Assembly: GCA_037131775.1 (NCBI GenBank) | Contig: JBAXQK010000003.1 | Span: 12,439-76,438, forward strand | Length of the DNA stretch: 64,000 nucleotides | Origin: Candidatus Uhrbacteria bacterium | GTDB lineage: Bacteria > Patescibacteriota > Patescibacteriia > UBA9934 > GWF2-40-263 | Reading direction: 5' to 3' | Shown: positions 15,963-55,109 of the stretch, one piece after another | Position numbering within the stretch: position 1 is the first letter of the stretch | Layout of the letters: every line of letters starts with the position of its first letter | The notes under the pieces: model-generated | The model's database searches: none | Seen by the model: only the letters and a program-made list of their open reading frames with translations | What the model was told of the DNA's origin: nothing | Made by a program: the position numbers and the translations under genes

Positions 15963-15965
15963 ACG

Positions 15966-34529: not shown

Positions 34530-34537
34530 ACGCGTGA

Positions 34538-39920: not shown

Positions 39921-41000
39921 TTACTCGATGCCTCCAACGAGGGTGTAGATGGGAAGGACGACGGCGAGGGCAAGGAACAGGACGCCGACGCCCATGACGA
40001 GGAGGAGAAGCGGCTCGAGAATGACGGTGAGGTTCTTCGAGGCCACGTCGGCCTTGAACTCGTACAGCTCGCCGATGCTGAGAAAGGCCTGCGGCACGGT
40101 ACCGGACTGCGCCGCGGTAACGATGAGCTGCTGCATCGGGATGGAAAGGACCGAACTGGTCCGCTTGTAGGAGCGGAACGCCTGCTCAAACGTGCTTCCC
40201 TCCTCCAGCCGGTCGGCGAGGTATTCGAAGAACTTCGAAAACGACGCGAACGTTGACGCGCGCGCGACGGAACGGACGGACTCGATCAGGTCGACGCCGG
40301 CGCCGAGAAGGGTGCCCAGCAGGTACCCGACGCGGCCGGTTTCCGAATCAATCAGCAGGCGCCCGATCGCCGGGGTGCGAAGCAGGAAGAAATGACCGAT
40401 GAACCGCAGCGGCGGTATGACGAAGCCGACCAGAAGGACGACGGCTGCCGTCCCCAGGATGGACGGGACCAGAACGGTCCAGTGGTCGCGCGTAAACGAA
40501 CCGACGGAGATGAGCGCGCTCGTCACGAACGGCAACGGCATGTTCAGCGACGAGAAGGTGGTGGCAAGCTGCGGAAGGAGAAAAAACAGCACCCAGGATC
40601 CGACGGCCGCCCCGAGGATGATCACGAACGAGGGATAGGCCATGGCCCCGATGATCTTGGATCGGAACATGCGGTCCTTCTGCCGCTGGAGAGCGAGGAT
40701 GTGCAGGTTCTGGATGAGCCGGCCGGTCTCCTCGCCGATGCGGACGAGCGAGACGGTCTGGCTCGTGAACAGGCACGTGTTGTCCAGGGCGCGCCACACC
40801 GGGTCCCCGTTCTCCACGTCCTCGACCATCCGTCGCACGAGCTTCCGGAGTCGCCGACTCTTCGTCTCCGCGGAGATGGCATTCAGCGCGGCCAGGATGT
40901 CCATGCCGGAACTCAACAAAACCGAAAGATTGTCCACGAGATATTCCTTCTCGCTTCCAAGGCCGAACGTGTGAAAAAAGGATGCCTTCTTTTTCGGCAT
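39921..41000 (-). CDS. pilC: Type IV pilus assembly platform protein PilC (GspF family)
   Basis: 359 aa; duplicated GspF domains with 3 TM segments. Confidence 0.88.
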   Translation of the reverse strand: MPKKKASFFHTFGLGSEKEYLVDNLSVLLSSGMDILAALNAISAETKSRRLRKLVRRMVEDVENGDPVWRALDNTCLFTSQTVSLVRIGEETGRLIQNLHILALQRQKDRMFRSKIIGAMAYPSFVIILGAAVGSWVLFFLLPQLATTFSSLNMPLPFVTSALISVGSFTRDHWTVLVPSILGTAAVVLLVGFVIPPLRFIGHFFLLRTPAIGRLLIDSETGRVGYLLGTLLGAGVDLIESVRSVARASTFASFSKFFEYLADRLEEGSTFEQAFRSYKRTSSVLSIPMQQLIVTAAQSGTVPQAFLSIGELYEFKADVASKNLTVILEPLLLLVMGVGVLFLALAVVLPIYTLVGGIE

Positions 41001-41004: not shown

Positions 41005-42702
41005 TTAGGACGCTTCGGGCGGCGCGACGACGCGAAGCAGCTCGTCGATGGTGATCACGCCATTGATCACCTTGTCGACGCCGTCAAGGAACATCGGCCT
41101 GGTTCCGGACGCGACCGCGGAGGCCATCACGTCCTTGGCGCTCGGCCGGCGCATCACGAGGTCGCGCAGTTCCGGCGTGGCCTGAATGAACTCGAACACG
41201 CCGATGCGCCCCTTGTATCCGGAATTCGCGCAGGCGGAACATCCCTTGCCCTGGTAAAGCGTCACCGTGGCCCCCGGAAAGTACTTCGCCGCGTCGGGAT
41301 ACTTCTCCGCGAGCTGCGCCTGGCTCATTTCCGTGCCATAGCGGCAGGTCTCGCACGTCTTGCGGGCTAGGCGCTGGGCCACGATCAGCTCGACGGTAGA
41401 TGACAGCAGGAACGGCTCCACGCCCATGTCCACCAGGCGCGGAATGGCCGAGGCGGCGTCGTTGGCATGGAAGGTCGTGAGCAGCATGTGGCCGGTCAGC
41501 GCGGCGTTGACCGCGATCTCGGCGGTCTCCTGGTCGCGTACCTCTCCCACGAGGATGATGTCCGGGTCCTGGCGCACGATGGACCGAAGGCCCTTGGAAA
41601 AGGTCAGGTTGGTCTGGAGGTTCACCTGGATGTGGTTCACGCCCATGATCTTGTACTCGACCGGGTCCTCGATGGTGGAAATGTTCACGTCGGGGCGGTT
41701 CAAGAACTTCACGGCCGCGTACAGCGTCGTGGTCTTTCCCGATCCGGTCGGCCCGATCACGAGGATCATCCCGAACGGCTTCTCCGCCGAGGCGGTGAGC
41801 TGTCGCTGCAGCGCCGGCGAAAGACCGAGGTCCGTGAGCTGATATCCGCGCATGTACTCCGACAGGAGGCGCATGACGATCTTCTCGCCGTCCACGAGCG
41901 GAACGACGGAGACGCGAACGTCCACGACCTGGTTGGCGAGATGGTAACGGATGGCCCCGTCCTGCGCCGAATAGTGCTCGTCGGTTCGGAGATGCGCCTG
42001 CACCTTGACGCGGTTCAGAACGTTTTCGTACAGCTCCTTGCTCAGGCGGCCGGCCTCCTCGAGCAGGCCGTCCACGCGGAACCGGATCAGCACGTCCTTC
42101 TCGCGCGGCTCGAAATGGATGTCGGACGCGCGAAACGTGACCGCGTCGAGCATGATCTCGTCCACCACTTCCGGGGCCACCTTTCCCTTCTCCGCCACGA
42201 TCTTCGCGAAGCGCGTATCCAATGCCTTGCGGTAGTGCGCGAACGCCGCCTCCAGGTCTTCCGGAAGCGTATATGCCAGATTGACGGTCTTTCCTGGGAA
42301 ATGCGAGCGAAAATCGTCCGTCATCTCAATCTGCGGGCGGTCGGTCGCGATGATCACCTCCGTCGGCGCGTCGCGAAAAATCACGCGCCGGTCGCGACGC
42401 GCGAACTCCTCCGGGATGCGCAGCACCTCCTCCTTGGTGGGAGGGTGCGAATTGAGGTCGGCGTACGGAACGCCGTAGTGCTCGGCGATCGCCTGGCCGA
42501 ACAGGTCCTTGGTGATGATGCCCGACGAGAAGAGCGCGTCGAGCGAATCGGCGCTCGTCGCCTTTGCCTCCGCTTCCACCTTCGCGAGCGCGTCGGCGGT
42601 CAGGTAGCTCTCCTCGACGAGAATTTCCTGCCACGTCTTTTGAGGCGCCGGCGCCGCGGCGGGGACGACCTCATTTTTTTTCCTCCTCAGTAACATATGC
42701 AT
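41005..42702 (-). CDS. pilB: Type IV pilus assembly ATPase PilB (GspE family)
   Basis: Walker A GPTGSGKTTTLYA, Asp box, His box, tetracysteine CETCRYG...CSAC. Confidence 0.92.
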   Translation of the reverse strand: MHMLLRRKKNEVVPAAAPAPQKTWQEILVEESYLTADALAKVEAEAKATSADSLDALFSSGIITKDLFGQAIAEHYGVPYADLNSHPPTKEEVLRIPEEFARRDRRVIFRDAPTEVIIATDRPQIEMTDDFRSHFPGKTVNLAYTLPEDLEAAFAHYRKALDTRFAKIVAEKGKVAPEVVDEIMLDAVTFRASDIHFEPREKDVLIRFRVDGLLEEAGRLSKELYENVLNRVKVQAHLRTDEHYSAQDGAIRYHLANQVVDVRVSVVPLVDGEKIVMRLLSEYMRGYQLTDLGLSPALQRQLTASAEKPFGMILVIGPTGSGKTTTLYAAVKFLNRPDVNISTIEDPVEYKIMGVNHIQVNLQTNLTFSKGLRSIVRQDPDIILVGEVRDQETAEIAVNAALTGHMLLTTFHANDAASAIPRLVDMGVEPFLLSSTVELIVAQRLARKTCETCRYGTEMSQAQLAEKYPDAAKYFPGATVTLYQGKGCSACANSGYKGRIGVFEFIQATPELRDLVMRRPSAKDVMASAVASGTRPMFLDGVDKVINGVITIDELLRVVAPPEAS

Positions 42703-42703
42703 T

Positions 42704-42714
42704 CAGTATAGCAC
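42704..42714 (-). promoter_or_regulatory. Extended -10 element GTGCTATACTG on the minus strand, 2 nt from the pilB ATG (leaderless-type arrangement)
   Basis: Part of an 11-bp inverted repeat with the pilA promoter element at 42757-42767. Confidence 0.4.
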
Positions 42715-42756
42715 ACCGCGCCTTATCCACACGAGCTTCGTTCTGCGATTTGACGT

Positions 42757-42797: not shown

Positions 42798-43286
42798 ATG
42801 CAAAAGAAAAATACGCAGGGCTTCACGCTCATCGAGCTTCTCATCGTCATCGCGATCATCGCGATCCTCGCCGCCGTCGTCTTCGTCGCCCTCGACCCGA
42901 GCAGCCGCTTCAAGAAGGCACGCGACGCCCGCCGCCAGACCGACGTGCAAAGCATCGCCGGCGCCATCGTCACCTACCAGGTGGATAACGACGGAAGCCT
43001 TCCGTCCGCCGTCAGCGCCCTGACCGCCGGAAGCGCGTACATCGTGGGAACGGCCACCTCCGGCTGCAACACCGGCTGTACGGCCACCACGACACAGGCG
43101 TCCTGCGTGGACCTTACCGCGCTCCAGACCGGCGGCTACCTGGGCAGCGTTCCGGTCGATCCGACGGGCGGAGTAACGGCCACCGCCGCGCACACCATGT
43201 ACTACATCATCAAGAATTCCACCGGAACCCTGACCGCCGGAGCCTGCATCCCGGAACTCGCCTCCTCGGTCAACGTTACGCGCTAA
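42798..43286 (+). CDS. pilA: Type IV major pilin (PilA-like; leader MQKKNTQG|FTLIELLIVIAIIAILAA)
   Basis: Canonical prepilin N-terminus; 162 aa; C-terminal Cys pair. Confidence 0.88.
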   Translation: MQKKNTQGFTLIELLIVIAIIAILAAVVFVALDPSSRFKKARDARRQTDVQSIAGAIVTYQVDNDGSLPSAVSALTAGSAYIVGTATSGCNTGCTATTTQASCVDLTALQTGGYLGSVPVDPTGGVTATAAHTMYYIIKNSTGTLTAGACIPELASSVNVTR

Positions 43287-43341: not shown

Positions 43342-43725
43342 CTAGGGATTTTCCGCGAGGACTTCCTTGACCATGTTCGCCAGGTCGTCGATGGAAATCT
43401 CCGTCTTGATCAGGAACTTGGTCGCCCCGAGCTTTTCGCACTGCACGCGGTCCTCGTCCTGGCCGAGGTTGGTCATGACCACGATCGGCACGCCCGCGAG
43501 CGACTTTTCCTTCGCGGCCTTGCGGAGGAATTCCAGACCGTCCATTCCCGGCATGATGATGTCGAGCAGGATCAGGTCCGGCATCTGCTCGCGGATCCGA
43601 ACGAATGCCTCCTTCCCGTCCGAGGCCGACGCGACGTCGTACCCCTCCGAGAGCAGCTTGGCCTGGTAGATCGCCTGGATATCGACGTTGTCCTCGGTGA
43701 TAAGGATGTGCGCTTTTGTTGGCAT
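43342..43725 (-). CDS. Stand-alone response regulator receiver
   Basis: MPTKAHILITEDNVDIQAIY...LLDIIMPGMDG...; ORF-track N-extension rejected. Confidence 0.82.
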   Translation of the reverse strand: MPTKAHILITEDNVDIQAIYQAKLLSEGYDVASASDGKEAFVRIREQMPDLILLDIIMPGMDGLEFLRKAAKEKSLAGVPIVVMTNLGQDEDRVQCEKLGATKFLIKTEISIDDLANMVKEVLAENP

Positions 43726-43747
43726 AGGATGATGAGATATCGGATCC

Positions 43748-43772: not shown

Positions 43773-44771
43773 TTAGTGGGATACGGCGGAGATGGTCACG
43801 GAACCCGTGCAGGTTCCGGAGACGCCTGAGTCCGGGATGGAAATATTCCAATAGATAGGCTCGGACGGAACGGTCGCGCCATGGCGGTATCCGACGCCCA
43901 GAGGAACGATGGACGGAACGGCGGTCAGCGAAACCGATCCGGAACCTCCGTAATGGTTCGGCACGACGGACCACTGCTGGCGTCTGCTCGGGACGGCGCC
44001 GATCCCGCCGTTATGGACGCAATCCATGGTTCCTCCATACCCGGGCGCCCCGGGCGCCGTCGAGTACGAAACTTCCGCGTCCGATTCGTCGTTCCCCTCC
44101 TGGGAGATGACATGGGCGAACTCATTCGTTTCGTCGGTGGATTCTCCGACCGAAAGGATTCCATAGTTGACGGAGTTGGGAACATGAAGCGCCAAGAGCG
44201 TCTGGATCTCGCGAGTAAGCGACGCGTTTGTCGCCTGCGCGCCCGCGCGGTCGAAGACGGTGACGCTTGCGACCCAGTGATCGTCTGGAAACTCACCGCC
44301 GGCAACCGTACTGTCCGCGAAGTACCAAAGGTCCAGCGGACAGCTGTACCGACGCTGCAGACTCGTTACACCGTCCGATGACAGCTCGCAATCAAAGACC
44401 TTGTAACAGTCATTCCCGTCATTTTCGACGCAACCGCCCGCGCCGGCGACGCCGGACCGGTAAAATACCGAGTCCACATGATCGATCTGGTCGCCCGAGT
44501 TGTTATCCTGAACGACGCCGTTCAGGTAAACGGTCTTCGTGCCGCCAGGCACGAGACTATTGATCCCACCGGAATATTCTTCCGATCCAAACGCGGAATT
44601 GCTGAGGCGGACGGAGGAAACGAACGGGGGCGCGTTTGCAAGAAGGATCGACGTGCCGACTGTTTGAGCCTCGGAATCCGTTTGGACGAGCAGCAATGCC
44701 GCCAGACCGCAAAGAACGAGAATGGCAGAGCCGAAAGCGACGGTGCGAAACGGAAAGATGTTCGGGCTCAT
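43773..44771 (-). CDS. Secreted Cys-containing protein, paralog family member 2 (ends GTCTGSVTISAVSH)
   Basis: Signal peptide; family blocks TKTVYLNG, FYRSG, CxxxxxDC, YSCPLDLWYFADS, NYGILSVG. Confidence 0.72.
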   Translation of the reverse strand: MSPNIFPFRTVAFGSAILVLCGLAALLLVQTDSEAQTVGTSILLANAPPFVSSVRLSNSAFGSEEYSGGINSLVPGGTKTVYLNGVVQDNNSGDQIDHVDSVFYRSGVAGAGGCVENDGNDCYKVFDCELSSDGVTSLQRRYSCPLDLWYFADSTVAGGEFPDDHWVASVTVFDRAGAQATNASLTREIQTLLALHVPNSVNYGILSVGESTDETNEFAHVISQEGNDESDAEVSYSTAPGAPGYGGTMDCVHNGGIGAVPSRRQQWSVVPNHYGGSGSVSLTAVPSIVPLGVGYRHGATVPSEPIYWNISIPDSGVSGTCTGSVTISAVSH

Positions 44772-44789
44772 ACGGGAAGGCGATTCAAT

Positions 44790-45836
44790 CTAACGGCTTG
44801 TCTTTGCAATGATCGTAACTGTCCCGGAACACGCGCCCGCCACGCCAGAAGTCGGAACCCGCACTTCGTTCCGCAGCACGACCGCCTTTGGCGACGACGG
44901 ATCGGTCTGCAGCGGAACATTCAGTTCCGCGACATGGGTGACGGACGATCCTTCGTCGACGTAGGCCTCCATCCCGATTCCGTCAAACCCTGCGTCCGTC
45001 GATTCCCCGTCGACGCCAACGCCGAACTGAAGGTTCGACACGGGAACGATCCCCGTGTCGCAGGACATGTCCGTCGCATAGACGTACGCATCCTGCGTAT
45101 CGTTCGCGGCCTGTCCGACAAGGATGTCCTCCGTGCCCACGGAAGTGTCGCCCTCGTATCCAAGCGACCTGGAACCGTAGTCGATGGATGACGGCATGCT
45201 CAGGCCGAGGAAGGCGTTGATCTCCTTGTCCAGATGCGCGACCGCGGATCCGGCGCCGTCCGCGTCCAGCGCGAGAACCTCCCATTTCCAAACGTACCCG
45301 TTCACCGTCGCGCTCGGTCCGCCGGCCGTATAGCTCGCAAATGCTCGCAGGTCGATCTGACACTCATACACGACGGTAAGGCCGGAAGGATCCGACGCAT
45401 CCCGCTCGAACACGCACTCCGGAACCATTCCGTCGGATGACGCCCAATAACAGACATGTTCCGTACCCGTGCACCGCGAGACGACCGGACGCGCATACGA
45501 GATGGGATCTCGGTCGCTTCTTCGCGCCTGCGCGTAAATTTTTTGAACGTCCTCCCATCCGTTCGCGTCGGAAATTCTTCCGTTCAGATAGACCGTAAGG
45601 CCAACGCCCGGAACGATGGTGTCAATGTTCCCGGCAAAGTCGTCGGAAAGCGAAAATCCCGAATCGAGGCTGATGTGCTCCTCCGTCACGACCGGCGCCG
45701 CGTTGACGAGCCACATCAGCATGTCGACGGTTTCGGCCTCTGAGGAAACCACCCGGACGACGGATGTGAGGACGCAAACAAGCGCCACCCACAGGACGAT
45801 CCCAAAAAAAACGCGTGACTGCTCTTCGTTCGGCAT
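44790..45836 (-). CDS. Secreted Cys-containing protein, paralog family member 3 (ends GACSGTVTIIAKTSR)
   Basis: Signal peptide; family blocks LTVYLNG, YECQIDLRAFASY, DYGSRSLG. Confidence 0.72.
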   Translation of the reverse strand: MPNEEQSRVFFGIVLWVALVCVLTSVVRVVSSEAETVDMLMWLVNAAPVVTEEHISLDSGFSLSDDFAGNIDTIVPGVGLTVYLNGRISDANGWEDVQKIYAQARRSDRDPISYARPVVSRCTGTEHVCYWASSDGMVPECVFERDASDPSGLTVVYECQIDLRAFASYTAGGPSATVNGYVWKWEVLALDADGAGSAVAHLDKEINAFLGLSMPSSIDYGSRSLGYEGDTSVGTEDILVGQAANDTQDAYVYATDMSCDTGIVPVSNLQFGVGVDGESTDAGFDGIGMEAYVDEGSSVTHVAELNVPLQTDPSSPKAVVLRNEVRVPTSGVAGACSGTVTIIAKTSR

Positions 45837-45868
45837 GCCTGTGATAGATCAGGGTTCCGTTTCGGATA

Positions 45869-45879
45869 GTATAGCACAA
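45869..45879 (-). promoter_or_regulatory. Extended -10 element TGTGCTATACT (minus strand) upstream of paralog 3
   Basis: Motif recurrence; about 33 nt before the ATG at 45836. Confidence 0.4.
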
Positions 45880-45912
45880 AAAGCCGCCGAGCTTGCGCGC
45901 GGCGGCTTTTTG
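45878..45912. terminator. Bidirectional terminator (gccgccg-agcttgcgcg-cggcggc with A5/T5 flanks)
   Basis: Follows the 45926..46165 gene on the minus strand. Confidence 0.55.
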
Positions 45913-45925
45913 TCAGGCCCTTTGC

Positions 45926-46165
45926 CTACTTCACGTTGACCTTCATGTCGACGTTGTCCTGGACGATCTCCAGCTTCGTGCCGACCCCGGAGTTTGGCGG
46001 CAGCGGAGTGGCAGCGTCAACGGTCTTTGAGGTTCCGGAGGATGCGGACGCGGAGATGGCGGGAGCGGGCGAAACGGACGACTTCTTTGTCGAAAGTCCG
46101 ACGAAGGTCATCGCGCTCGCAAGCGTGATCGCAACCGCCAGTCCAGCCAGTAGTTTCATGTTCAT
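45926..46165 (-). CDS. Small secreted protein (79 aa, signal peptide)
   Basis: MNMKLLAGLAVAITLASAMTFVGL...; sits between paralogs 3 and 4. Confidence 0.5.
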   Translation of the reverse strand: MNMKLLAGLAVAITLASAMTFVGLSTKKSSVSPAPAISASASSGTSKTVDAATPLPPNSGVGTKLEIVQDNVDMKVNVK

Positions 46166-46189
46166 AGGAACAGGCTTAGACGGCTTTGA

Positions 46190-47215
46190 TTAGCGATTGG
46201 TCTTCGCGGTGACAGTAACCGTTCCGGCACACGAACCCTTGACTCCCGACGACGGGACGGTGATCTCGTTGCGCCACATGACCTGCTTGGAGGATCCATT
46301 TGTCTGCGGGTCCAGGTTGAGCTCGATAACGTCCGTCGAGGCGGTGTTGATGTAGTTCACCATGCCCGTGCCGCCGTATCCGACGTCAGATCCTTCGCCG
46401 GCAACGCCGACGCCGTACTGAATGTTGGCGACCGGGATGGAACCAAGACCCGAGCAGGTCATGTCCGTCGCGCTGATGTAGGCGTCCTGGGTGTCGTTCG
46501 ATTTGTTCGCGATCGGCTGGTCCTCACCGCCGACGCTCGTGTCGCCGACGGATCCAAGCGACTTGTTTCCGAAGTTGATGTTGCCCGGGATTGCGAGCCC
46601 GAGATACGCGTTGAGCTCCTTGTCGACGTTCGAGATGCTCGAACCGTCATTTGCGGCGTCAATCGCGAGAACCTGCCACTTGTAGGTCTGGGCGTTGATC
46701 GCGGAGTTCGCGCCTCCGTTCGTGTACTCAAACCAGTACGGGAGATTGAACGCACAGCTGTAGTTGACCGTGTTCCCGGATCCGCCGTAGAGGGAACAGA
46801 GGGGGGATCCGCCATCGGACATGGCGATCAAACAGTCGAACTGGTTCGGGGTGCAGTTGGTGAACGCAGGCTTCGAGTAGGAAAGCAAGGTGCCGTCCGT
46901 GCTGAGCGCCACGGAGGCGACCACCTTGGTGACGTCCGCGTATCCGTTGAAGTCCGTGATCACGCCGTTGACGTAGACGGTCGCTCCCATGCCGGCAACC
47001 ATCGTGTTGATGTTGCCGCCCCAGAAGTTCGAGTTCGTGTTCGCGGCGTTGCTGAGGAATTCCGACGTGACGGTAGGAGCGTCGTTGTTAACGCCAAGGG
47101 TCATGTTGGTCGGACCGGCCTGCGAGTTGATCATGACGAGGGAGGCAACCACGAACACGGCGATCATGACGAGCGAGATCCCGAGAATGTAGTGCAATGT
47201 CTTGGACTCTTGCAT
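46190..47215 (-). CDS. Secreted Cys-containing protein, paralog family member 4 (ends GSCAGTVTVTAKTNR)
   Basis: Start at MQESKTLHYILGISLVMIAV (TM/signal); family blocks ATVYVNG, YSCAFNLPYWFEYT, NFGNKSLG. Confidence 0.7.
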   Translation of the reverse strand: MQESKTLHYILGISLVMIAVFVVASLVMINSQAGPTNMTLGVNNDAPTVTSEFLSNAANTNSNFWGGNINTMVAGMGATVYVNGVITDFNGYADVTKVVASVALSTDGTLLSYSKPAFTNCTPNQFDCLIAMSDGGSPLCSLYGGSGNTVNYSCAFNLPYWFEYTNGGANSAINAQTYKWQVLAIDAANDGSSISNVDKELNAYLGLAIPGNINFGNKSLGSVGDTSVGGEDQPIANKSNDTQDAYISATDMTCSGLGSIPVANIQYGVGVAGEGSDVGYGGTGMVNYINTASTDVIELNLDPQTNGSSKQVMWRNEITVPSSGVKGSCAGTVTVTAKTNR

Positions 47216-47306
47216 ACGGATAGAAGAATTATTTAGAGAACGAACGCGTGCCTCAAATTTTCTGCACTGTTGTGGGGGGGTTAATGAATTATGATTCTGC
47301 AATTGT

Positions 47307-47319
47307 GGATAACTGACGA
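47307..47319 (-). promoter_or_regulatory. Extended -10-like element GTGTGGTATACTG (minus strand) about 90 nt upstream of paralog 4
   Basis: Variant of the TGTGCTATACT motif. Confidence 0.3.
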
Positions 47320-47353
47320 CAGTATACCACACGGATTGCTCAGGGACCAGAAC

Positions 47354-48718
47354 TTACCATCGGCGTTCCGCATCGGAAGGGATCGGCGCGTCAGGAATCT
47401 TCTCCGCGGGCGGCACGGCGGCCGAACGGACCTCCGTCACGACGGGCGACGGCGACTGTTCCGTCGGACGAGCCTTCGCCGTCGCCTCCTTTCCATGACG
47501 CCGACGGCGAACGATGACGATCAGAAGGACGAAAAGGAGGATGACGACGGAAAGAACTCCGATTCCCACGTATGAGTTGAGCGTCTTCAACGCCACGGCC
47601 TCGTTGACCGTAAGAACAACATCTTTTGACAGCGTCTTCTTGTTGCCAAACTTCACGTAGGTAGTCAGCGAGTACCGACCTGGATCCTTCGGATCAAGCA
47701 GGAGGGAAAGATTGGAGGATTCCCCCGGTCCGACGGAAACTTCCTCGCCGCGAATCAGGTCGACATACGCCCCGTCCTTGTACAGCTCCCCCATCAGCAG
47801 TCCGCTGATGACGATATCGCCGGTGTTGGAAAAGACCGCGTCGACCGGCACCTTCTCGCCGAGCTCAAACGAATCCTTCTTTGTCGAAACGGACACAAGC
47901 TCTCCGGACTGGGCCATGGTTCCCGGGGCGAACACGTTGAAGTCGAAGGACGTCAGCTCGCCGATCTGCTCCTTCTGCTCATTGAAGAACTTCGTCGTCA
48001 GGGAGTACGTGCCTTCCGGAAGACTCCGGTCGAGTTCGATCCGAACGTTGCCTTCCTTGCCCGGGCCAACGGAATCGAACTTGTCTGATTCCAACGAGTA
48101 GAGGATCTGGTCGGACGGATCGTTCTTGTTCGAGAACGCAAGCTCGGCACGGTACGGCTTCCAGTTGACGTTACCGGTATTCGCGAAGACGTACGTGACA
48201 AACGGATGGAGGTTTGACTCCGTGTCATCGACATGCGACGTCCTGATTTCAAAGGAGACAAGTTCCTTTCCGCTCACGGCAAAGTTTATTTCCAGCGCCA
48301 CCCCGGTAAGGACACCCATTCCCATCTGATCCCCGGTGGCCGCTCCACCCGCACCCACGCGCGAGTTCATGAACGACAGGACGCCCTTGTGGGAACCGGA
48401 CTGGGCAATGCCGGGATCGACCTGAAACGTATAGTCAATTCCGTCCATGCCGCTTGGAATAATGGCGGCCGGCTCAAATCTCAGATATTCCGCGGCGTCT
48501 CCAACGGCCAGGATATTCAGCTTCAGTTCCCCTTCCTGATCCGAACTCCGAAGGAGATGGACGGTGACGTTCTGCGGAATCCCCCGCATGACGTCTGGAA
48601 TTATGACCGACGACGGCGAGAGTCCGAGCGCAAGCGCGGGATGCGCGACCAGCAGGGCCATGGCGCACGCGAACGAAGCCGCGAGACTATTTTTGAGCAA
48701 GGAACGAGTCTTTGGCAT
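47354..48718 (-). CDS. Cell-surface protein, type I membrane topology (signal peptide, GLSP N-domain, C-terminal TM + RRRRH), paralog 1 of 3
   Basis: 454 aa; N-terminus LALGLSPSSVIIPDV shared with 49590 and 50498 proteins; C-terminal TM and basic stop-transfer. Confidence 0.68.
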   Translation of the reverse strand: MPKTRSLLKNSLAASFACAMALLVAHPALALGLSPSSVIIPDVMRGIPQNVTVHLLRSSDQEGELKLNILAVGDAAEYLRFEPAAIIPSGMDGIDYTFQVDPGIAQSGSHKGVLSFMNSRVGAGGAATGDQMGMGVLTGVALEINFAVSGKELVSFEIRTSHVDDTESNLHPFVTYVFANTGNVNWKPYRAELAFSNKNDPSDQILYSLESDKFDSVGPGKEGNVRIELDRSLPEGTYSLTTKFFNEQKEQIGELTSFDFNVFAPGTMAQSGELVSVSTKKDSFELGEKVPVDAVFSNTGDIVISGLLMGELYKDGAYVDLIRGEEVSVGPGESSNLSLLLDPKDPGRYSLTTYVKFGNKKTLSKDVVLTVNEAVALKTLNSYVGIGVLSVVILLFVLLIVIVRRRRHGKEATAKARPTEQSPSPVVTEVRSAAVPPAEKIPDAPIPSDAERRW

Positions 48719-48720: not shown

Positions 48721-49062
48721 CTATTTCGTTAGCACCACGATAAGAATAAGAATCGTCGTAATGAAAATGGCAAGAAGGACGCTTGTCTTGGTTCGGTCGG
48801 CCATCTTTGAATAGTCCGAGTACGACCTTGAGAAGGAACCGTCTTCCCTCCGCGGGTACAGCTTCTCGAACGCCTTCGATTTGTCTTCGAACAAGACGGT
48901 GGAAATCTGACGCGGCTTGTCCGTCATCAAAAACGCATGTGCGATCGTGGAAACAAGAAAGCCGACCGCGAATCCCCAGAACAGTGGGTAATCACCGATC
49001 CGCCTCAGCGTATCCCACGACGCGCCAAGCACGGCGCGCATTCCCAAGAAAAAATTTTGCAT
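48721..49062 (-). CDS. Hypothetical membrane protein (2 TM)
   Basis: 113 aa; low GC relative to genome. Confidence 0.5.
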   Translation of the reverse strand: MQNFFLGMRAVLGASWDTLRRIGDYPLFWGFAVGFLVSTIAHAFLMTDKPRQISTVLFEDKSKAFEKLYPRREDGSFSRSYSDYSKMADRTKTSVLLAIFITTILILIVVLTK

Positions 49063-49076: not shown

Positions 49077-49616
49077 GTGAGAATAGTATATCATGATTCC
49101 AATACTATGCTGCTCTCTTACCTGTGGAAAACATTTCGGCTCGCATCGTGTGCTGTCCTGATTATCCTGTTCGTGAGAACGTTCGTGATCGAGACGGGAC
49201 GCGTAAACGGCGTCTCCATGGAGAGCACGTATCTGGACAGCCAGACATTTTACATCAATAAATTTGCGCTGCTGCTTTCCACGCCGAAGCGCGGACAGAT
49301 CATTCAGTGCAAGGCTCCGAACGGCGAGTCGCTCCTCATCAAGCGCATCGTCGGGCTTCCGGGAGAAACCGTGCACATTCACGAGAACGAGGTCTCTATC
49401 ACGGACAGCCGGGGAAACCTGATCCGTCTAAACGAGACGTACCTGAAGCCGGGGTCCATCACGCAGACCTGGAACCACGAGCCCGGGGACTACCCGGTCC
49501 TTGGTCCGAACGAGTACTTCGTCATGGGGGACAACCGCCGGGAGAGCGGCGACTCTAGGCACTTCGGCCCCGTCCCGAGAGAAAACATCCTAGGGTTGGT
49601 TATCTCTCCGTTTTAA
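49077..49616 (+). CDS. lepB: Signal peptidase I (LepB-type Ser/Lys)
   Basis: Box B GVSMEST, box D IKRIVGLPGETV, box E VMGDNRRESGDSRHFGPV; start could alternatively be the Met at 49107. Confidence 0.85.
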   Translation: MRIVYHDSNTMLLSYLWKTFRLASCAVLIILFVRTFVIETGRVNGVSMESTYLDSQTFYINKFALLLSTPKRGQIIQCKAPNGESLLIKRIVGLPGETVHIHENEVSITDSRGNLIRLNETYLKPGSITQTWNHEPGDYPVLGPNEYFVMGDNRRESGDSRHFGPVPRENILGLVISPF

Positions 49617-50501
49617 CGCACGGCGCCGTCGAAACGTGCCGCCGAACGCGGCCAGGATGACGGCGGCAAGCGCCCCCGACGTCAGCACGACGAGCCGCTT
49701 TCGAAGCGTCGGCTGCAAAACCCAGAATGAGACGTCCTTTGTTACGCCGCCCACGGAAACCTCTGCCGTATATTTTCCCGACGGGAAGGATTCCGACAGG
49801 TCGAAGTCATAGGATTGCACGCTGGCCCCGCCAACGGGAATGTCGTCGGAGAGAAGGTATGTCTGGGCATTCACCGGCACCCCGTCCTTCGACACCACCA
49901 CGTGACTCTCGACCCCTTCGATCGGATTTTGACCCGCATTGACCAGGTCCCACGCCACGTGAAGGCGACGGCCGTTTCGAAGGGACGACTGGGTCACCCG
50001 CGGCACGCGAACGGAAATGTCCTTCATCAGCGTCGGATAATCGACGGCGCTCAGGACCACGTTCGATCCTGGACGATCCTGCACGGACAGGTGCACCTGA
50101 AACATGAGCCCCGCGATCACCTGTTGGCCACTGGCGGCCTGGTCACCGGGTGGGTCGAGGAGAAACTGAATCGTTTCGTCATATTCTCCCACGGGCAGAT
50201 CCAAGGAGCTGACCGTAAAGCGAAACGGGACAAAGTGCTCGCCGTCCGGAATGGTCACGCTCGCTGTACCGCCGATATCGATTGCGGCGGACTTCGTCAG
50301 TTCGGAGACATGAAACACCGACTCCCCCTCGGCATCCTGACGCGAAATCATAATTTCCTCCGTCAGCGTGTCGCCGCGATACACCACCAGGTTCATCTCT
50401 CCCGGAGAGAGGCCGATTGTCTGCGCGGCGGACGATGGCGGGACCAGCACGAACATGCCTAGCAAAACGAGGACGGAGAGGAACGGAAGGCGGAATGTCA
50501 T
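49590..50501 (-). CDS. Cell-surface protein paralog 2 of 3 (signal peptide, IGLSPGEMNLVV N-domain, C-terminal TM + RRRR)
   Basis: 303 aa; 3' end overlaps the lepB 3' end convergently (27 nt). Confidence 0.68.
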   Translation of the reverse strand: MTFRLPFLSVLVLLGMFVLVPPSSAAQTIGLSPGEMNLVVYRGDTLTEEIMISRQDAEGESVFHVSELTKSAAIDIGGTASVTIPDGEHFVPFRFTVSSLDLPVGEYDETIQFLLDPPGDQAASGQQVIAGLMFQVHLSVQDRPGSNVVLSAVDYPTLMKDISVRVPRVTQSSLRNGRRLHVAWDLVNAGQNPIEGVESHVVVSKDGVPVNAQTYLLSDDIPVGGASVQSYDFDLSESFPSGKYTAEVSVGGVTKDVSFWVLQPTLRKRLVVLTSGALAAVILAAFGGTFRRRRALKRRDNQP

Positions 50502-52123
50502 ACAGGATCAATTTCAGGGTGAACGATCGATTCGTCTTCCTCCTCGTTCTTTCCTCGTGAGAACGCGAGCGCGACGATGGCGATGGCGGCCAGAAAAAAC
50601 GAGAGGACAAGCATCAGGCAGATGGGGAATTTTTTCTTCGTCAGGCACGGGCAGACCGTCATCAGGGACGCCTGTTCCGGTGCGGCAGGAACGCTGGCCG
50701 CGACGAGGAAGCGACCGGAGAGGTCTTCTGTCCGAACCGCGTCCGATACCCGCATCTGTCCGTTTACCGAATCCACGCCACCAAACTCCAGCGAGGTCGT
50801 TGCCTCCCGCTTCGGACGGAACTGGAACGCGGCGACATATCCGCGCGTCCCGGAGAAAGCGACGTCCGACGCGCCAATGAGGCGAATGGAACCGGCGCCC
50901 GCCTTTCCGTATTCCCCTCGGACGTACGGAAAGATGGACCCGAGCGTGCTGACGTCAACGAGATCGAGGACGTCCGTGTCGTACCGGAATGTGACGTCAG
51001 CCGCACGGACGCCGGACGGGCCCGTGTCGGCAAGAAGATAGAACGTCACGAGATCGTCGGGCGTCTTCTCGGCGGCCGCGAGCACGAACTCGTATTTGCC
51101 CAGAGCGCCCCCCTCCTCGAAGTAGAAAGTTTCCTGCTCGGTCGCAAGCGCCGGACCGGGCGTCACGGGAGGAACGGACGGTGCCGCATCCTTCGGGGCG
51201 CCAACGAGCTCGGCGGCCGCCGCGATATCCAGCAGGGTGAACGCGCAATCCGCGTTCAGGTCGCACGTCAGCGCGCAGGTCGCGCCAAGATACTCGCTCA
51301 TGAGAGTCGTGACGTCGGCCGAGCCCTGGATTCCATCGCCGTTCCGGTCGAGCGAAAATCCAGCGTTATCGCATGCCGCTCCGGAGGCAGGCGCTCCTTC
51401 CTGCGATACCGAGCCTGTCGGCCCCGCGGGAGTGACAGTCGGGACAACGACGGGAGCCTGCGATACGGACGGCGTTCCCGTCGTATCCGTGAAACCCGTG
51501 TCACTGCCGAACGATCCGGACGAACCAGTGTCCGCGGGAGTCTGCGCAATGGATCCGCCGGTGCCATCCGTCGTTGTGGTGTTCGTCGACGGGGTCGTGG
51601 GAGTGGTCGTTGGCGTCGACGGGGTCGGTTCCTGCGTGATCCCGCCGCCACCGCCGCCCGTCGGGTTTCCACCTCCGGACCCCCGCGCCCTGACGGAAAA
51701 CCTTACCGTCGCCGTTACGCCGCGTTGAACGGCGTTGCCGGACCCGTCGCCGGAACCGGAAACGTCCGTCAGAAGGAACGCGATGTACTGCCGGTAATCC
51801 CCTGTCTCAATGTCCGCGCCAGGCGAGACGACGAACTTGTATTCCACCGCGTCTTGGTCCGGCCCCATCACGATCGTATTTTCTCCCGTGACGCATCCGC
51901 CGCATTCCCCGTGAAATCCAACCTCGAAGACCAGCGCGCCGACTTCCCCGTCCCCGCGCTGAAGCCCGACCGTCTCGCGGACGGAGGAAGAGGAGGACAG
52001 CGTCCGGGAAACCGTGACCTCCGGCGGGGAGAGGCCGAACGCGAAGGACGGATGCGCAGACGCAAAAAACGAACTGGCGACAAGGAAAATTACGGCGGCT
52101 AACTTTTGATGAAACGGGCGCAT
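50498..52123 (-). CDS. Cell-surface protein paralog 3 of 3 with Thr/Pro-rich linker, dockerin-like double repeat, cohesin-like C-domain and C-terminal TM
   Basis: FGLSPPEVTVS N-domain; TPSTPTTTPTTPSTNTTTT linker; DRNGDGIQGSADVTTLMSEYLG + DLNADCAFTLLDIAAAAELVG; cohesin-like VTFRYDTDVLDLVDV...; ATGA overlap with the paralog 2 start. Confidence 0.72.
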   Translation of the reverse strand: MRPFHQKLAAVIFLVASSFFASAHPSFAFGLSPPEVTVSRTLSSSSSVRETVGLQRGDGEVGALVFEVGFHGECGGCVTGENTIVMGPDQDAVEYKFVVSPGADIETGDYRQYIAFLLTDVSGSGDGSGNAVQRGVTATVRFSVRARGSGGGNPTGGGGGGITQEPTPSTPTTTPTTPSTNTTTTDGTGGSIAQTPADTGSSGSFGSDTGFTDTTGTPSVSQAPVVVPTVTPAGPTGSVSQEGAPASGAACDNAGFSLDRNGDGIQGSADVTTLMSEYLGATCALTCDLNADCAFTLLDIAAAAELVGAPKDAAPSVPPVTPGPALATEQETFYFEEGGALGKYEFVLAAAEKTPDDLVTFYLLADTGPSGVRAADVTFRYDTDVLDLVDVSTLGSIFPYVRGEYGKAGAGSIRLIGASDVAFSGTRGYVAAFQFRPKREATTSLEFGGVDSVNGQMRVSDAVRTEDLSGRFLVAASVPAAPEQASLMTVCPCLTKKKFPICLMLVLSFFLAAIAIVALAFSRGKNEEEDESIVHPEIDPV

Positions 52124-52139: not shown

Positions 52140-52862
52140 TCACATTTTCCTTGCGTCCCTCAGCTTCCTGCGCAAAATCCAGAGATGCTTGAAGTTATCC
52201 CAGGCGGTTGCAAAAATTTTCACCGACGTCTTCCTCCTCGCGTCGCGTCCTTCCTCCCAACGCACGGGAATGTTCGCCACGACGAACCCGCAACGCTCGG
52301 CATGGGCAAGAATCTCCGTGTCGAAAAAGAATCCTTCGTGCGTCCAGAGGGGAAAAAGTACCTGTGCCGCGTCTCGCCGGACCGCCTTGAATCCGCACTG
52401 CAGGTCCTGCGCGGAGATGGAAACCAGGACGCGCGCGATCAGCCGATACACCCGCGAAACGATTCGGCGGGACAGCGACCGTCTCACGACGGAATCGCGA
52501 TGAAACCTGGACCCCGCCGCAACCCCGCGTCGCGTCGCCCCGTCGATAAGCGCGGGGACGTCCCGCAGGTCGGTCGCCAAATCCGCGTCCATGAACGCGT
52601 ACACGTCGGCATCCCGTGACTTCCACGCCTCTCGGATCGCGAGCCCCTTCCCTTTTTGCTGGAGAGGAAACAATCCGACGCGGGAATGGTCGCAGGCGAC
52701 GGACCGGACGATCTCGCACGTCCGGTCAACGGACCCGTTGTCCGCAACCAAAATCATCCAGTCGTAGTCCCTCAGCAAGCCGTCAAACGCAGCGACGGAC
52801 TGACGCAGGCTGTTCTCGATCACCAGCTCCTCGTTGTACGCGGGAATGACCATCAGCACCTT
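52140..52862 (-). CDS. GT2-family glycosyltransferase, polyprenol-phosphate sugar synthase-like (DPM1/Ppm-like)
   Basis: MKVLMVIPAYNEE..., DAD motif (FMDADLATD), QxxRW-like region; start at the internal Met 52862. Confidence 0.82.
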   Translation of the reverse strand, partial: KVLMVIPAYNEELVIENSLRQSVAAFDGLLRDYDWMILVADNGSVDRTCEIVRSVACDHSRVGLFPLQQKGKGLAIREAWKSRDADVYAFMDADLATDLRDVPALIDGATRRGVAAGSRFHRDSVVRRSLSRRIVSRVYRLIARVLVSISAQDLQCGFKAVRRDAAQVLFPLWTHEGFFFDTEILAHAERCGFVVANIPVRWEEGRDARRKTSVKIFATAWDNFKHLWILRRKLRDARKM

Positions 52863-54441: not shown

Positions 54442-55014
54442 CTATTTGAATTCCCCTTCCAGCACATGCCCGGACGGATCCGGGTTCCCGTCCTTCGGCT
54501 CCCTGGTCACGACGACCCGAACGTACCCGTCATACTTCCCCGCCGCGCTGGCCCATTCGAGCCCCCAGGTTCCGTCCTCGTTTCCGACGAATGACCCGAC
54601 GGAGACAAAATCGTACGGAACCTGACGAACGAGCCATCCCTCGTAGGATTCCTTTTCCGGGTCGATCGGCGGGAAGGACGACGCCTTGATCTTCAAAAGC
54701 ATCTGCCCGTCGACGGTCTCGCGGATCGTCGTCCCCGTCGCGGATCCGCCCGACACGTCGCGCAGCGTCGCCTCGCGGACCGTCCCGGACATGGATACGG
54801 CCAGGTCGGCGGCAGAGACAGCCGTCGGCGACATCACGTTTGCGATCGTGTTCGTGGCGACGACATCCGTCGACGGTTTCGGCCGGAACCGGAACCACCA
54901 GATTCCGCACGCGAACAGCCCCGCGATCGCGACAATGATCAGCGCGATGACGACAACCGTCCCGGTGACGCGCGGGGAACGGCGGCGGGCGTGGAATTGG
55001 GAACGGTATTGCAT
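54442..55014 (-). CDS. Hypothetical membrane-anchored protein
   Basis: Start at MQYRSQFHARRR...; one TM then ~150-aa soluble domain. Confidence 0.5.
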   Translation of the reverse strand: MQYRSQFHARRRSPRVTGTVVVIALIIVAIAGLFACGIWWFRFRPKPSTDVVATNTIANVMSPTAVSAADLAVSMSGTVREATLRDVSGGSATGTTIRETVDGQMLLKIKASSFPPIDPEKESYEGWLVRQVPYDFVSVGSFVGNEDGTWGLEWASAAGKYDGYVRVVVTREPKDGNPDPSGHVLEGEFK

Positions 55015-55022
55015 AGAAGATG

Positions 55023-55105: not shown

Positions 55106-55109
55106 AATT

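Follow-up and report, generated by a model that had tools for sequence, protein, structure and literature searches.

The TasA/TapA/SipW operon of Bacillus subtilis encodes secreted β-sandwich subunits beside a signal peptidase gene, together with an anchoring or nucleating accessory protein, and processing of the N-terminus exposes a strand-like segment. The WxL/Csc clusters of enterococci and lactobacilli, in which WxL proteins occur with a DUF916/WxLIP anchored protein, combine several secreted β-sandwich paralogs with signal-peptide-plus-Ig-like proteins bearing a C-terminal transmembrane (TM) anchor, and attachment to the monoderm envelope is non-covalent. In Gram-positive bacteria, YSIRK/GS-type signal peptides are cleavable leaders with a conserved motif where the hydrophobic core begins; the motif is common to otherwise unrelated or variable surface proteins and is thought to direct the place or manner of secretion. 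Lactobacillus Slp, Campylobacter fetus Sap and Mycoplasma Vsp combine an invariant 5′ end and leader with highly divergent bodies, tandem or multiple paralogs, a strong promoter and a long 5′ UTR. As for CPR bacteria themselves, the S-layer is reported to be a prevalent feature of Patescibacteria (bioRxiv 10.1101/2024.05.28.596244), CPR pili have been implicated in host attachment (PMC11623550), and the pairing of Trx with VKOR is known as a disulfide system enriched in CPR genomes (PMC6744442).

The window analysed here is a 64,000-nucleotide stretch of Candidatus Uhrbacteria DNA. The four paralogous open reading frames proposed in the initial annotation (A–D, Table 1) are all present, each encoded by the minus strand. 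Between paralogs, the mature parts are 29–47% identical (A–B 35%, A–C 32%, A–D 43%, B–C 47%, B–D 29% and C–D 32%), with BLAST E-values of 1e-18 to 1e-89, far above chance. A and D match at E = 4e-61 in BLASTP, while tblastn gave about 1e-84 to 1e-89 for B–C, 1e-23 for A–B and 1e-19 to 1e-21 for A–C. A family HMM matched A, B, C and D and no other gene of the window. Aligning the four paralogs shows the proposed common blocks and, at the C-terminus, the G-x-C-x-G-[ST]-x-T tail, and each protein has the expected signal peptide, an N-terminal hydrophobic leader ending in S/A-x-A. Of the six to eight conserved cysteines proposed, six align and probably form three disulfides; the seventh in A and in B is a leader residue.

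In agreement with the earlier failure to recognise a known domain, profile searches of Pfam, NCBIfam and PDB sequences returned no match for A–D, catalytic families included. The family is unannotated, as its description as novel implied, but that word needs qualification, since an exhaustive HMM search recovered 1,867 cluster representatives, 466 of them at E ≤ 1e-30. A word-index search gave 24 family matches. The named members are all ‘hypothetical protein’ from Patescibacteria or Kaiserbacteria, and the module also occurs in larger proteins, fused to LamG, PKD, RCC1 or Fib_succ_major modules, in keeping with a role outside the cell. The AF2 model of A (pLDDT 88.6, pTM 0.76) consists of a helix at residues 8–31 and two β-sandwiches. 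The best two-domain Foldseek matches are FimH (TM-score 0.30–0.35), the AgI/II C-terminal domains and RbmA, with TM-scores of 0.2–0.35 overall and identities of about 10%; these matches are generic and uninformative on function. A–D are members of a large family, spread across the Patescibacteria, of proteins predicted to be exported, each with two Ig-like domains.

The leader is the best-conserved protein segment family-wide (H-W-x-L-G ... S-Q-A followed by D, also written H-[WY]-[IV]-L-G ... S-Q-A-D), and in the fetched loci it is confined to family members. Among the leader-bearing Uhrbacteria orthologues it is about 100% identical, against a median of 36% for the body. Bodies behind a 100% conserved leader are 25–36% identical; in L003 and L004 the C leader is 100% identical and the mature parts are 30–31% identical to C. 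The leader DNA shows synonymous changes, and selection therefore acts on the peptide. Position −3 is S or T in 92 of 97 sequences and position −1 is A in 87 of 97. Of 106 members, 80 have an n-region with a net charge of ≤0, an uncommon property among Sec signal peptides. The hydrophobic core is about 22 residues long and, at this length, might stay in the membrane as an anchor instead of being cleaved off as a Sec signal; H, W, G and F are conserved inside the helix. The leader is usually followed by a short Thr/Val-rich extension (D-x-V-x-T-x-x-[IV]-x-N), which is conserved, has β-strand character and is unpacked in the AF2 monomer model (pLDDT 56–79). The D-type subfamily, which lacks the extension, also occurs in other lineages.

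The bodies evolve quickly. The survey of relatives suggested earlier gave two to six family genes per locus, and the largest tandem arrays hold five copies with a sixth nearby. A has orthologues of 92% identity in L001 and 56% in L002. B, a C-type duplicate whose leader is degenerate, is missing from L003 and L004, whose locus has only two family genes. Compared with L001, the family genes and their anchored Ig neighbours are the fastest-evolving genes of the region, with 90–94% identity and dN/dS of 0.15–0.38, against 96–100% and 0.00–0.11 for PilB, PilC, LepB and the two-TM protein; over whole genes, dN/dS stays under 1 (0.15–0.26), and positive selection is therefore not demonstrated. The constant leader, variable body, changing copy number and fast evolution fit the earlier suggestion of a variable surface family.

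The tandem genes belong to a conserved cluster, in the order of a gene like that for the 303-aa protein, LepB, the two-TM protein, an anchored Ig protein, a family gene, a small protein and one or more further paralogs. This order recurs in L001, L003, L004, L008, L009, L010, L012 (rearranged, still clustered), L013 and L015, each with a family gene in the C slot, and the neighbour proteins there are only 25–45% identical to those of the window. Some family genes (L011, L019, L020) have unrelated housekeeping surroundings. The 79-aa gene between C and B, absent from the initial annotation, is conserved: in L001, L003, L004, L005, L008, L010, L011, L012, L013 and L019 a gene of 76–84 aa with this architecture comes immediately after the leader-type gene, and the small protein's C-terminal V-x-T-S-V-x-V repeats resemble the family extension.

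On the other side of C, the 454-aa protein is the conserved immediate upstream neighbour; its L009 homologue matches CARDB (29.3 bits), and the anchored neighbour weakly matches a ‘putative S-layer protein’. Its N-terminal domain is common to the 541-aa protein, which matches cohesin (E 4.8e-5) and has an L003 orthologue with a weak Dockerin_1 match, while the L015 homologue of the 303-aa protein weakly matches WxLIP_HBD (E 0.005). The two-TM protein is 100% identical in L001 and 30–58% in distant loci, always beside LepB. LepB (TIGR02227, 114 bits against a cut-off of 47) retains its Ser and Lys catalytic motifs, GVSMEST and IKRIVGLPGE, and its position is conserved in nine loci, though it may be a housekeeping signal peptidase only. 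In Uhrbacteria the cluster also holds GT2 and GT-C-like glycosylation genes; the GT-C-like protein (TIGR04154, E 6e-6, far below cut-off) is a candidate surface glycosylation enzyme.

The extended −10 element, searched as TGTG-N-TATAMT, has five matches in the window against 0.01 expected. Each of the three tandem genes had been credited with its own promoter, which holds for B and C but not for A: A starts 18 nt past the B stop codon and is apparently co-transcribed with B, and the element at 43748-58, beyond the A stop codon, serves the receiver gene. The C promoter is kept in L001, L003 and L004. An intrinsic terminator ends the unit of C and the 79-aa gene and divides it from B–A. The DnaA-box 9-mer occurs three times in the window against 0.07 expected, and it or a one-mismatch version lies at the promoter of a leader-type gene in 9–12 related loci.

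D had been placed directly downstream of the VKOR and thioredoxin pair; it is in fact upstream in the direction of transcription, within one apparent operon. D, Trx and VKOR are spaced by gaps of 5 and 3 nt and D starts 11 nt past a deacetylase-like gene, so that spacing and direction give the order deacetylase–D–Trx–VKOR. The order deacetylase–D–Trx recurs in L006, where the contig ends short of VKOR. The proposed association of conserved cysteines with adjacent disulfide machinery is thus upheld.

Table 1. Features of the family loci and their surroundings in the window.
Feature	Position	Strand	Description
VKOR-like protein	15522-15962	-	NCBIfam VKOR family, E 1.9e-17; downstream of D
Trx-like (CPHC) protein	15966-16400	-	glutaredoxin/PDI-like matches; downstream of D
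Paralog D	16406-17320	-	304 aa; ordinary signal peptide, without post-leader extension
PilC	39921-41000	-	Pfam and NCBIfam; context
PilB	41005-42702	-	Pfam and NCBIfam; context
Pilin	42798-43286	+	Pfam and NCBIfam; context
Receiver-only response regulator	43342-43740	-	Pfam and NCBIfam; context
Paralog A	43773-44771	-	332 aa; leader, 10-aa extension, two Ig-like sandwich domains; apparently co-transcribed with B
Paralog B	44790-45836	-	348 aa; C-type duplicate, degenerate leader
Extended -10 promoter TGTGCTATACT	45868-45878	-	B-A unit
Intrinsic terminator	45876-45913	-	RNA fold dG -29 kcal/mol, z -5.64, then UUUUU
Small partner protein	45926-46165	-	79 aa; N-terminal TM/signal segment, low-complexity linker, C-terminal β-hairpin-like repeat (EIVQDNVDMKVNVK)
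Paralog C	46190-47215	-	341 aa; leader-type gene, slot immediately after anchored Ig-like protein
C leader MQESKTLHYILGISLVMIAVFVVASLVMINSQA	47117-47215	-	codons 1-33 of C; predicted signal-peptidase I site after SQA
Perfect DnaA-box 9-mer TTATCCACA	47304-47312	-	8 nt downstream of C promoter -10 element
Extended -10 promoter TGTGGTATACT	47321-47331	-	C; followed by ~95 nt 5′ UTR
Anchored Ig-like protein	47354-48718	-	454 aa; signal peptide, three CARDB/PapD-like β-sandwiches, C-terminal TM, Pro-rich cytoplasmic tail
Two-TM membrane protein	48721-49062	-	113 aa; conserved
Signal peptidase I, LepB type	49077-49616	+	divergent orientation within cluster; PF10502 E 1.8e-35
Anchored Ig-like protein	49590-50501	-	303 aa; signal peptide, domain related to 454-aa N-terminus, C-terminal TM
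Anchored surface protein	50498-52123	-	541 aa; Thr/Ser/Pro linker, dockerin-like and cohesin-like segments, C-terminal TM
GT2 glycosyltransferase	52140-52898	-	PF00535 E 2e-18
Membrane protein	52862-54430	-	at least 10 TM segments; weak STT3/GT-C-like similarity

On balance, A–D are probably variable subunits on the exposed side of a surface assembly of CPR cells, the ‘cargo’ of the conserved surface gene cluster, and the family most likely builds the fast-evolving outer surface of the ultra-small Patescibacteria cells. The conserved leader would direct Sec export, the adjacent LepB would cleave after S-Q-A, and the Trx-like/VKOR pair would support oxidative folding. Membrane-anchored partners would hold the mature proteins non-covalently, so that they form the exposed outside of a coat or short fibre on the cell surface. 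Diversifying pressure on this surface would be reflected in rapid divergence, in the exchange of bodies behind an unchanging leader and in tandem duplication. Weighing against this reading are the lack of any recognised wall- or membrane-attachment motif in mature A–D, the unusual n-region charge, the possibility that LepB is the housekeeping enzyme only, the dN/dS below 1, the family genes in housekeeping surroundings and the generic fold matches.

Retention on the cell without any other anchor would be accounted for if the leader were an uncleaved signal anchor, its helix contacting the TM segments of the anchored Ig proteins as well as the two-TM protein, with the extension forming a stalk. 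We regard this as possible though doubtful: the long core, the neutral or acidic n-region and the conserved H, W, G and F, which an ordinary signal peptide does not need, agree with it, but the −3/−1 S-x-A is near-invariant at the end of the helix, LepB is encoded alongside, and D-type and C-terminal-module members manage with ordinary leaders or without such leaders. The same signal peptidase gene would suit a fibre built by strand complementation, by analogy with TasA/TapA/SipW or chaperone-usher pili, in which the N-terminal extension of a cleaved subunit adds a β-strand to the next subunit, extension-less D types cap the tip, and the hairpin of the small TM protein plugs the basal subunit and anchors the fibre. 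The conserved, unpacked extension, the separate D-type subfamily, the extension-like repeats of the small partner and the weak FimH match point this way. However, both sandwiches are predicted to be complete with high confidence and therefore offer no obvious acceptor groove, LepB is of the bacterial and not the SipW type, and domain searches found no TasA/Peptidase_M73, PapD or usher homologues, so that we consider such a fibre rather unlikely.

Lactobacillus Slp proteins likewise join a conserved signal peptide to a hypervariable body, and the leader-type paralog might be the major two-dimensional lattice protein of an S-layer in the CPR envelope, the other copies being alternative or silent variants. 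The strong extended −10 promoter, the long 5′ UTR and strong terminator, the nearby glycosylation genes, the weak S-layer-like match of the anchored neighbour and the reported prevalence of S-layers in Patescibacteria all speak for it. We nevertheless hold it to be unlikely: Pfam and NCBIfam searches found none of the domains that anchor S-layers, SLH and CWB2 included, a mass of about 30 kDa is low for such a protein, and several paralogs have their own promoters and are therefore not obviously silent cassettes. The pilus-associated adhesin proposed initially did not stand as worded, the link being positional only and the adjacency limited to some lineages. In the Uhrbacteria loci and in L010, the family genes are followed by those of the pilus. 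If the paralogs were accessory or tip proteins that the neighbouring type IV pilus helps to display or export, this would explain why REC, pilin, PilB and PilC adjoin the family in the window and in L001–L004, why the distant L010 locus has the order HK, REC, PilB, PilC and pilin-like gene, and why the C promoter and the stretch between pilB and the pilin gene both carry the DnaA-box 9-mer; the reported role of CPR pili in host attachment also agrees. This role is distinctly improbable, since A–D have no prepilin leader or N_methyl motif in Pfam and NCBIfam searches, the helix of the AF2 model is a TM segment of 24 residues and not a pilin α1 helix packed on a sheet, no pilus genes lie within 5–10 kb in L012, L015/L016, L011, L019 and L020, HK and/or REC genes separate the two gene sets, and the pilus genes of L003 and L004 evolve 2–3 times slower than the family cluster. 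The deeper conserved linkage is with the LepB/two-TM/anchored Ig-like/small-protein cluster, over the pilus genes. Export and Cys-richness are all that would suggest secreted enzymes or toxins, a reading already disfavoured and extremely improbable given the lack of catalytic-family matches, the fold of two plain β-sandwiches and the few near-invariant polar residues besides Cys (D89, N227), which form no recognisable catalytic motif.

The traits set out above for the known systems recur here, N-terminal processing and the mode of attachment as predictions. As compared to TasA/TapA/SipW, A–D lack Peptidase_M73/TasA homology, the sole trace being the non-significant match of the 454-aa neighbour (E 0.11); the peptidase differs in type, and the subunits are two complete Ig-like domains with probable disulfides. 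FimH, the AgI/II C-terminal domains and RbmA likewise have two tandem β-sandwich domains, but the low TM-scores come with no verifiable isopeptide, lectin-pocket or donor-strand features. The arrangement of Slp, Sap and Vsp is matched by the family loci, where inversion or recombination sites were not identified and, unlike in those systems, the synonymous leader changes argue against recent DNA-level cassette recombination. The family leader motif differs in sequence from YSIRK/GS, its n-region is neutral or acidic where theirs is basic, and it has no LPXTG partner signal; it shares with YSIRK/GS the position of the motif and its use on variable proteins. With WxL/Csc clusters the locus has in common the secreted β-sandwich paralogs, the TM-anchored Ig-like proteins and, as we infer, non-covalent attachment to a monoderm envelope.

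The initial annotation had placed four paralogous open reading frames in the window, and all four were confirmed, every one on the minus strand. The alignment of the four covers their entire length; six cysteines are invariant among A, B, C and D, and the C-terminal G-x-C-x-G-[ST]-x-T tail is as described. Pairwise identities in the mature parts are 29-47%, and the four fall into the pairs A/D (43%) and B/C (47%). The similarity is far above chance: A and D match at E = 4e-61, B and C at about 1e-84 to 1e-89, and A-B and A-C at 1e-18 to 1e-23. A family HMM picks out exactly these four proteins within the 64-kb window. The gene list of the tandem cluster stood, except that it had omitted a 79-aa gene between C and B.

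Family genes, the small gene of the tandem cluster and perfect DnaA-box 9-mers in the window
Feature	Position	Strand	Description
Paralog A	43773-44771	-	ORF, 332 aa
Paralog B	44790-45836	-	ORF, 348 aa
Paralog C	46190-47215	-	ORF, 341 aa counted from MQESK
Paralog D	16406-17320	-	ORF, 304 aa
79-aa gene, between C and B	45926-46165	-	TM/signal segment, low-complexity linker, C-terminal β-hairpin-like repeat
DnaA-box 9-mer TTATCCACA	47304-47312	-	8 nt downstream of the -10 element in the C promoter
DnaA-box 9-mer TTATCCACA	42723-42731	+	pilB/pilin intergenic region
DnaA-box 9-mer TTATCCACA	55708-55716	+	third copy in the window

As the initial annotation had it, the paralogs contain no known domain: Pfam (E<=1) and NCBIfam (E<=0.1) scans of A-D gave no matches, and neither did a profile search of all PDB sequences with the family. 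The AlphaFold2 model of A, based on a 25-sequence alignment, is confident (pLDDT 88.6, pTM 0.76) and consists of a helix (residues 8-31), an unstructured stretch (32-49) and two complete β-sandwiches, at about 50-190 and 195-332. These seven- to eight-stranded sandwich domains have the Ig-like/E-set fold, and are therefore best described as an extracellular Ig-like module, with no more specific reading; the predicted fold indicates no enzyme family. The C-terminal tail forms the final strand inside domain 2 (pLDDT 92-93), and its candidacy as a sorting signal was rejected, as the model buries this terminal strand.

A word-indexed search found 24 relatives of the family, and an exhaustive HMM search, run over 1.84 billion cluster representatives, returned 1,867 at E<=1e-3 and 466 at E<=1e-30. 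The members with a named source are each a "hypothetical protein" of Patescibacteria or Kaiserbacteria. In long proteins, the two-domain module lies at the extreme N- or C-terminus, alongside LamG, PKD, RCC1 or Fib_succ_major modules, all of which serve in binding or as scaffolds outside the cell. Even a UniRef entry leaves the two-domain module without annotation. The closest genome records are Candidatus Uhrbacteria MAGs, represented by the related loci L001 (A 92% identical) and L002 (56%).

Most members begin with a conserved leader, composed of 5-12 polar residues, mostly uncharged or acidic, and the segment [LA]-H-[WY]-[IV]-L-G-x-A-L-L-L-I-G-x-F-V-x-x-A-L-V-x-[VI]-N-S-Q-A, after which the next residue is usually D. 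It is followed by a strand-like extension, x-V-x-T-x-x-x-[IV]-x-N-x-x-P-x-V, that runs into domain 1. Among 49 leader-type representatives, one for each 50%-identity cluster, variability along the protein is lowest at residues 11-40 (entropy 1.1-1.5 bits, versus 1.7-2.9 in the body). Twelve proteins of the Uhrbacteria clade have MQESKTLHYILGISLVMIAVFVVASLVMINSQA in common; their leaders show a median identity of 100%, and their mature parts a median of 36% (range 25-79%). Some of the bodies behind this leader, such as that of the homologue P0003, are closer to the A/D subfamily than to C. In a DNA alignment of four loci, the leader contains many synonymous differences, and its conservation therefore reflects selection on the peptide, not recent DNA exchange. 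No non-family protein in any of the fetched loci carries the leader. A D-type minority (D itself, the homologues P0038, P0056 and P0058-60, and the second gene of L008) has an ordinary signal peptide and lacks the extension. The H-W-x-L-G ... S-Q-A-D pattern provides a sequence signature for finding such proteins in any CPR genome.

For the genomic setting, 22 related loci were fetched; the locus search used subfamily alignments. Tandem arrays are usual: pairs occur in L005 and L008-L011, the window and L001 have three copies each, and L015/L016 has a run of five with a sixth close by. In nine loci, the leader-type gene is preceded by the same core order, namely an anchored protein like x303 or x541 of the window, LepB in the opposite orientation, a two-TM protein of 113 aa and an anchored Ig-like protein of 430-650 aa. 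The cluster neighbours in distant loci are only 25-45% identical to their window counterparts, and in L012 the order is rearranged with the genes still grouped. Directly downstream of the leader-type gene there is nearly always a gene for a protein of 76-84 aa, which starts with a TM/signal segment, continues with a linker that varies and ends in two V-x-T-S-V-x-V strands. The architecture of the 79-aa protein recurs after the leader-type paralog in ten related loci, and its sequence is barely alignable between lineages.

LepB is a bacterial-type signal peptidase I (TIGR02227, 114 bits, cut-off 47), with intact Ser and Lys motifs. The anchored Ig-like neighbour in the window is a 454-aa protein, matched at 100% identity by the NCBI entry "hypothetical protein [Candidatus Uhrbacteria bacterium]". 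Behind its signal peptide come three CARDB/PapD-like sandwiches, followed by a C-terminal TM segment with a Pro-rich tail. Its AlphaFold2 model (pLDDT 71.7) shows generic CARDB/PapD-like sandwiches that give no functional clue; only four sequences were aligned, because word-index searches gave three and four homologues. It was also considered as a family homologue, which was rejected since profile-profile comparison revealed no relation except in the TM segments. The protein x541 (50498-52123, minus strand) shares its N-terminal domain with the 454-aa protein. It also contains a long Thr/Ser/Pro/Gly linker, a dockerin-like segment (D-x-N-x-D) and a stretch that weakly matches cohesin, and may be a self-associating scaffold in a non-cellulolytic CPR bacterium.

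Uhrbacteria carry two glycosylation genes ahead of the cluster, one for a GT2 and one for a GT-C-like protein. In the window (52140-54430, minus strand), the GT2 glycosyltransferase gene overlaps by 37 nt that of the protein with at least 10 TM segments, which has weak similarity to archaeal STT3/GT-C. The position of this pair directly upstream of the cluster suggests glycosylation of the surface proteins. At the cluster boundary lies an RskA-type anti-sigma factor gene (54442-55113, minus strand), with no adjoining sigma factor gene; in L019, a family gene comes after an ECF-sigma-like gene and the gene of a membrane protein downstream of it. An identical cassette of a family gene and a small gene is found in L011 (8625-9841) and L019 (10001-11217), in unrelated housekeeping contexts on two different large contigs of a single assembly (FLOH01), suggesting its recent duplication or mobility.

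The tandem copies had each been assigned their own promoter. This holds for B (45868-78) and C (47321-31), which have TGTG-N-TATAMT elements, but not for A, which has none and starts 18 nt past the stop of B; a third copy of the element (43748-58) lies below the stop codon of A and belongs to the receiver gene. A strong terminator at 45876-45913 (dG -29 kcal/mol, z -5.6) divides the unit of C and the 79-aa gene from the B-A unit. The 9-mer TTATCCACA occurs three times in the window, against 0.07 expected. It is present at the leader-type gene promoter in L001, L003, L004, L008 and L009; in L005, L007, L010 and L017 it is inverted, at 30-40 nt upstream of the -10 element, and L014, L015 and L019 have it with one mismatch. 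This recurrence points to a conserved regulator site. The 9-mer is likely the operator of a regulator, possibly DnaA acting as a transcription factor.

Beside D, the Trx-like (CPHC) and VKOR-like genes at 15522-16400 were confirmed. D had been described as lying downstream of them, and the order is the reverse: D is upstream of Trx-VKOR in one apparent operon, in which a deacetylase-like gene comes first. The deacetylase-D-Trx order recurred only in L006, a close relative whose neighbouring proteins are about 80% identical; L008 has its D-type gene within the main cluster instead. The Trx/VKOR pair is a CPR-enriched module, thought to oxidise secreted proteins (PMC6744442).

The family genes and the anchored Ig proteins evolve faster than the rest of the region. 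Between the window and L001, the family genes are 92-94% identical, with dN/dS of 0.15-0.26 (A 0.17, B 0.15, C 0.26), and the anchored Ig proteins 90-94% identical (0.18-0.38); for PilB, PilC, LepB, GT2 and the two-TM protein, identity is 96-100% (0.00-0.11). No gene exceeds 1 in this comparison, and gene-wide dN/dS thus gives no sign of positive selection; among the four paralogs, at 29-47% identity, synonymous sites are saturated. The contrast in rates is larger against L003 and L004, where identities are 30-31% for the C-type mature part, 50% for the A-type (P0011, P0012), 35-36% for the 454-aa protein and 33-34% for x303, as compared to 56-58% for LepB, 85% for PilB and 92-94% for the receiver.

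The pilin, PilB, PilC and receiver genes were confirmed near the tandem cluster. Pilus genes come after the family genes in the Uhrbacteria clade and in L010, but none lie within 5-10 kb in L012, L015/L016, L011, L019 and L020. Where both occur, histidine kinase and/or receiver genes lie between family and pilus genes. In the window, the pilus genes are bordered by those of a dCache-HAMP-PAS histidine kinase and of two receiver-only response regulators that lack output domains (34095-36793; 43342-43740, minus strand), and an HK-REC pair likewise parts the two gene groups in L008-L010. The extended -10 element of the pilB promoter (42705-42715, minus strand) ends 3 nt ahead of the annotated ATG (PilB start 42702); the mRNA would then be leaderless, unless translation really begins at a Met further downstream. 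The proposal that the proteins are pilus-associated adhesins drew on adjacency only, and A-D do not pass the prepilin test. Type IV pilins and minor pilins have a class III (prepilin) signal peptide, with the N-methylation motif G|F-x-x-x-E, and a long α1 helix, unlike A-D; the predicted helix of A spans just 8-31, with a flexible linker after it. The idea that the leader is processed at its conserved Gly in the manner of a prepilin was rejected, given the lack of K/R at -2, of E+5 and of an N_methyl match. N_methyl, TIGR02532 and GspG-H do not match A-D, while they do match the true pilins at 42798 and 39438.

The family and its cluster best fit a model in which disulfide-bonded, exported two-Ig-domain subunits would form that part of a CPR cell-surface assembly which is exposed and variable, with anchored components, a processing enzyme and a small partner encoded alongside the subunits. 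LepB would cleave after S-Q-A, Trx/VKOR would oxidise the subunits, and membrane-anchored partners would retain them. The N-terminus of A, B, C and D contains a TM-like segment, and a hydrophobic core followed by small -3/-1 residues conforms to Sec/SPase I export; with S/T at -3 in 92 of 97 sequences and A at -1 in 87 of 97, the pattern fits a putative signal peptidase I site. On the other hand, the n-region is rarely basic, with a net charge of zero or below in 80 of 106 members, atypical of a Sec signal peptide, and a leader that stays uncleaved as a retained signal-anchor is a serious alternative.

The surface assembly may be arranged as a coat, S-layer-like, or as a short fibre. Three observations invite a model of strand complementation, as in TasA or chaperone-usher pili: the extension resembles a strand, the D-type copies lack it, and the small protein ends in a hairpin. 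Against this model, both sandwiches are already complete in the monomer prediction. We consider it improbable that the cluster encodes a dedicated, CPR-specific surface-assembly pathway of a kind so far undescribed, in which LepB and the two-TM protein would read the family leader, subunits would polymerise by the exposed N-terminal strand, the D-type would act as cap and the small TM-hairpin protein as tether, and a DnaA-box operator shared with the pilin promoter would gate expression.

Patescibacteria (CPR), which live attached to other cells, represent a large part of bacterial diversity; to our knowledge, almost nothing is known of their surface proteins beyond type IV pili. Three things are defined here: a family of exported two-Ig-domain proteins that is very large, restricted to CPR and unannotated; the leader of this family, unusual and hyper-conserved; and a conserved partner set of LepB, the two-TM protein, anchored Ig-like proteins and the small hairpin protein. 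Together they are concrete candidates for the surface coat of CPR or for structures of attachment. Should the leader prove to be a dedicated targeting signal, it would add a new case of Sec export with substrate specificity, in a minimal bacterium. The literature search found no description of the family, leader signature or partner gene set, and the curated databases contain no entry for them; the fold is of a known kind.

We rate the family as a kind of secreted Ig-like surface protein of monoderm bacteria. Sortase substrates (MSCRAMMs, Gram-positive pilins) have a C-terminal LPXTG-like motif, hydrophobic segment and basic tail, whereas the sequences here end in a β-strand (..TISAVSH, ..TAKTNR), without TM segment or LPXTG. 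Chaperone-usher pilins have an incomplete Ig fold without the last strand, an N-terminal donor strand, a PapD chaperone and an usher; here, both sandwiches are predicted to be complete, there is no usher, and the neighbouring Ig proteins are CARDB/PapD-like only by generic fold. S-layer proteins self-assemble into a 2D lattice at very high abundance and carry an SLH, CWB2 or other anchoring module; Pfam and NCBIfam revealed no SLH or CWB2 domain in A-D. The family has no Pfam match at E<=1 to TasA/camelysin (Peptidase_M73, PF12389-type), and SipW is an archaeal/ER-type peptidase (TIGR02228), whereas the cluster peptidase matches the bacterial-type TIGR02227. WxL/Csc systems combine a C-terminal WxL domain with a DUF916/WxLIP anchored partner, which the family does not. 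In function, the cluster is like four known systems: the TasA/TapA/SipW operon, the WxL/Csc surface-complex clusters of enterococci, S-layer or variable surface proteins whose leader is conserved, and YSIRK-type targeting signal peptides. The sequence features that define these families were not found here, which for S-layer proteins refers to SLH and CWB2 domains.
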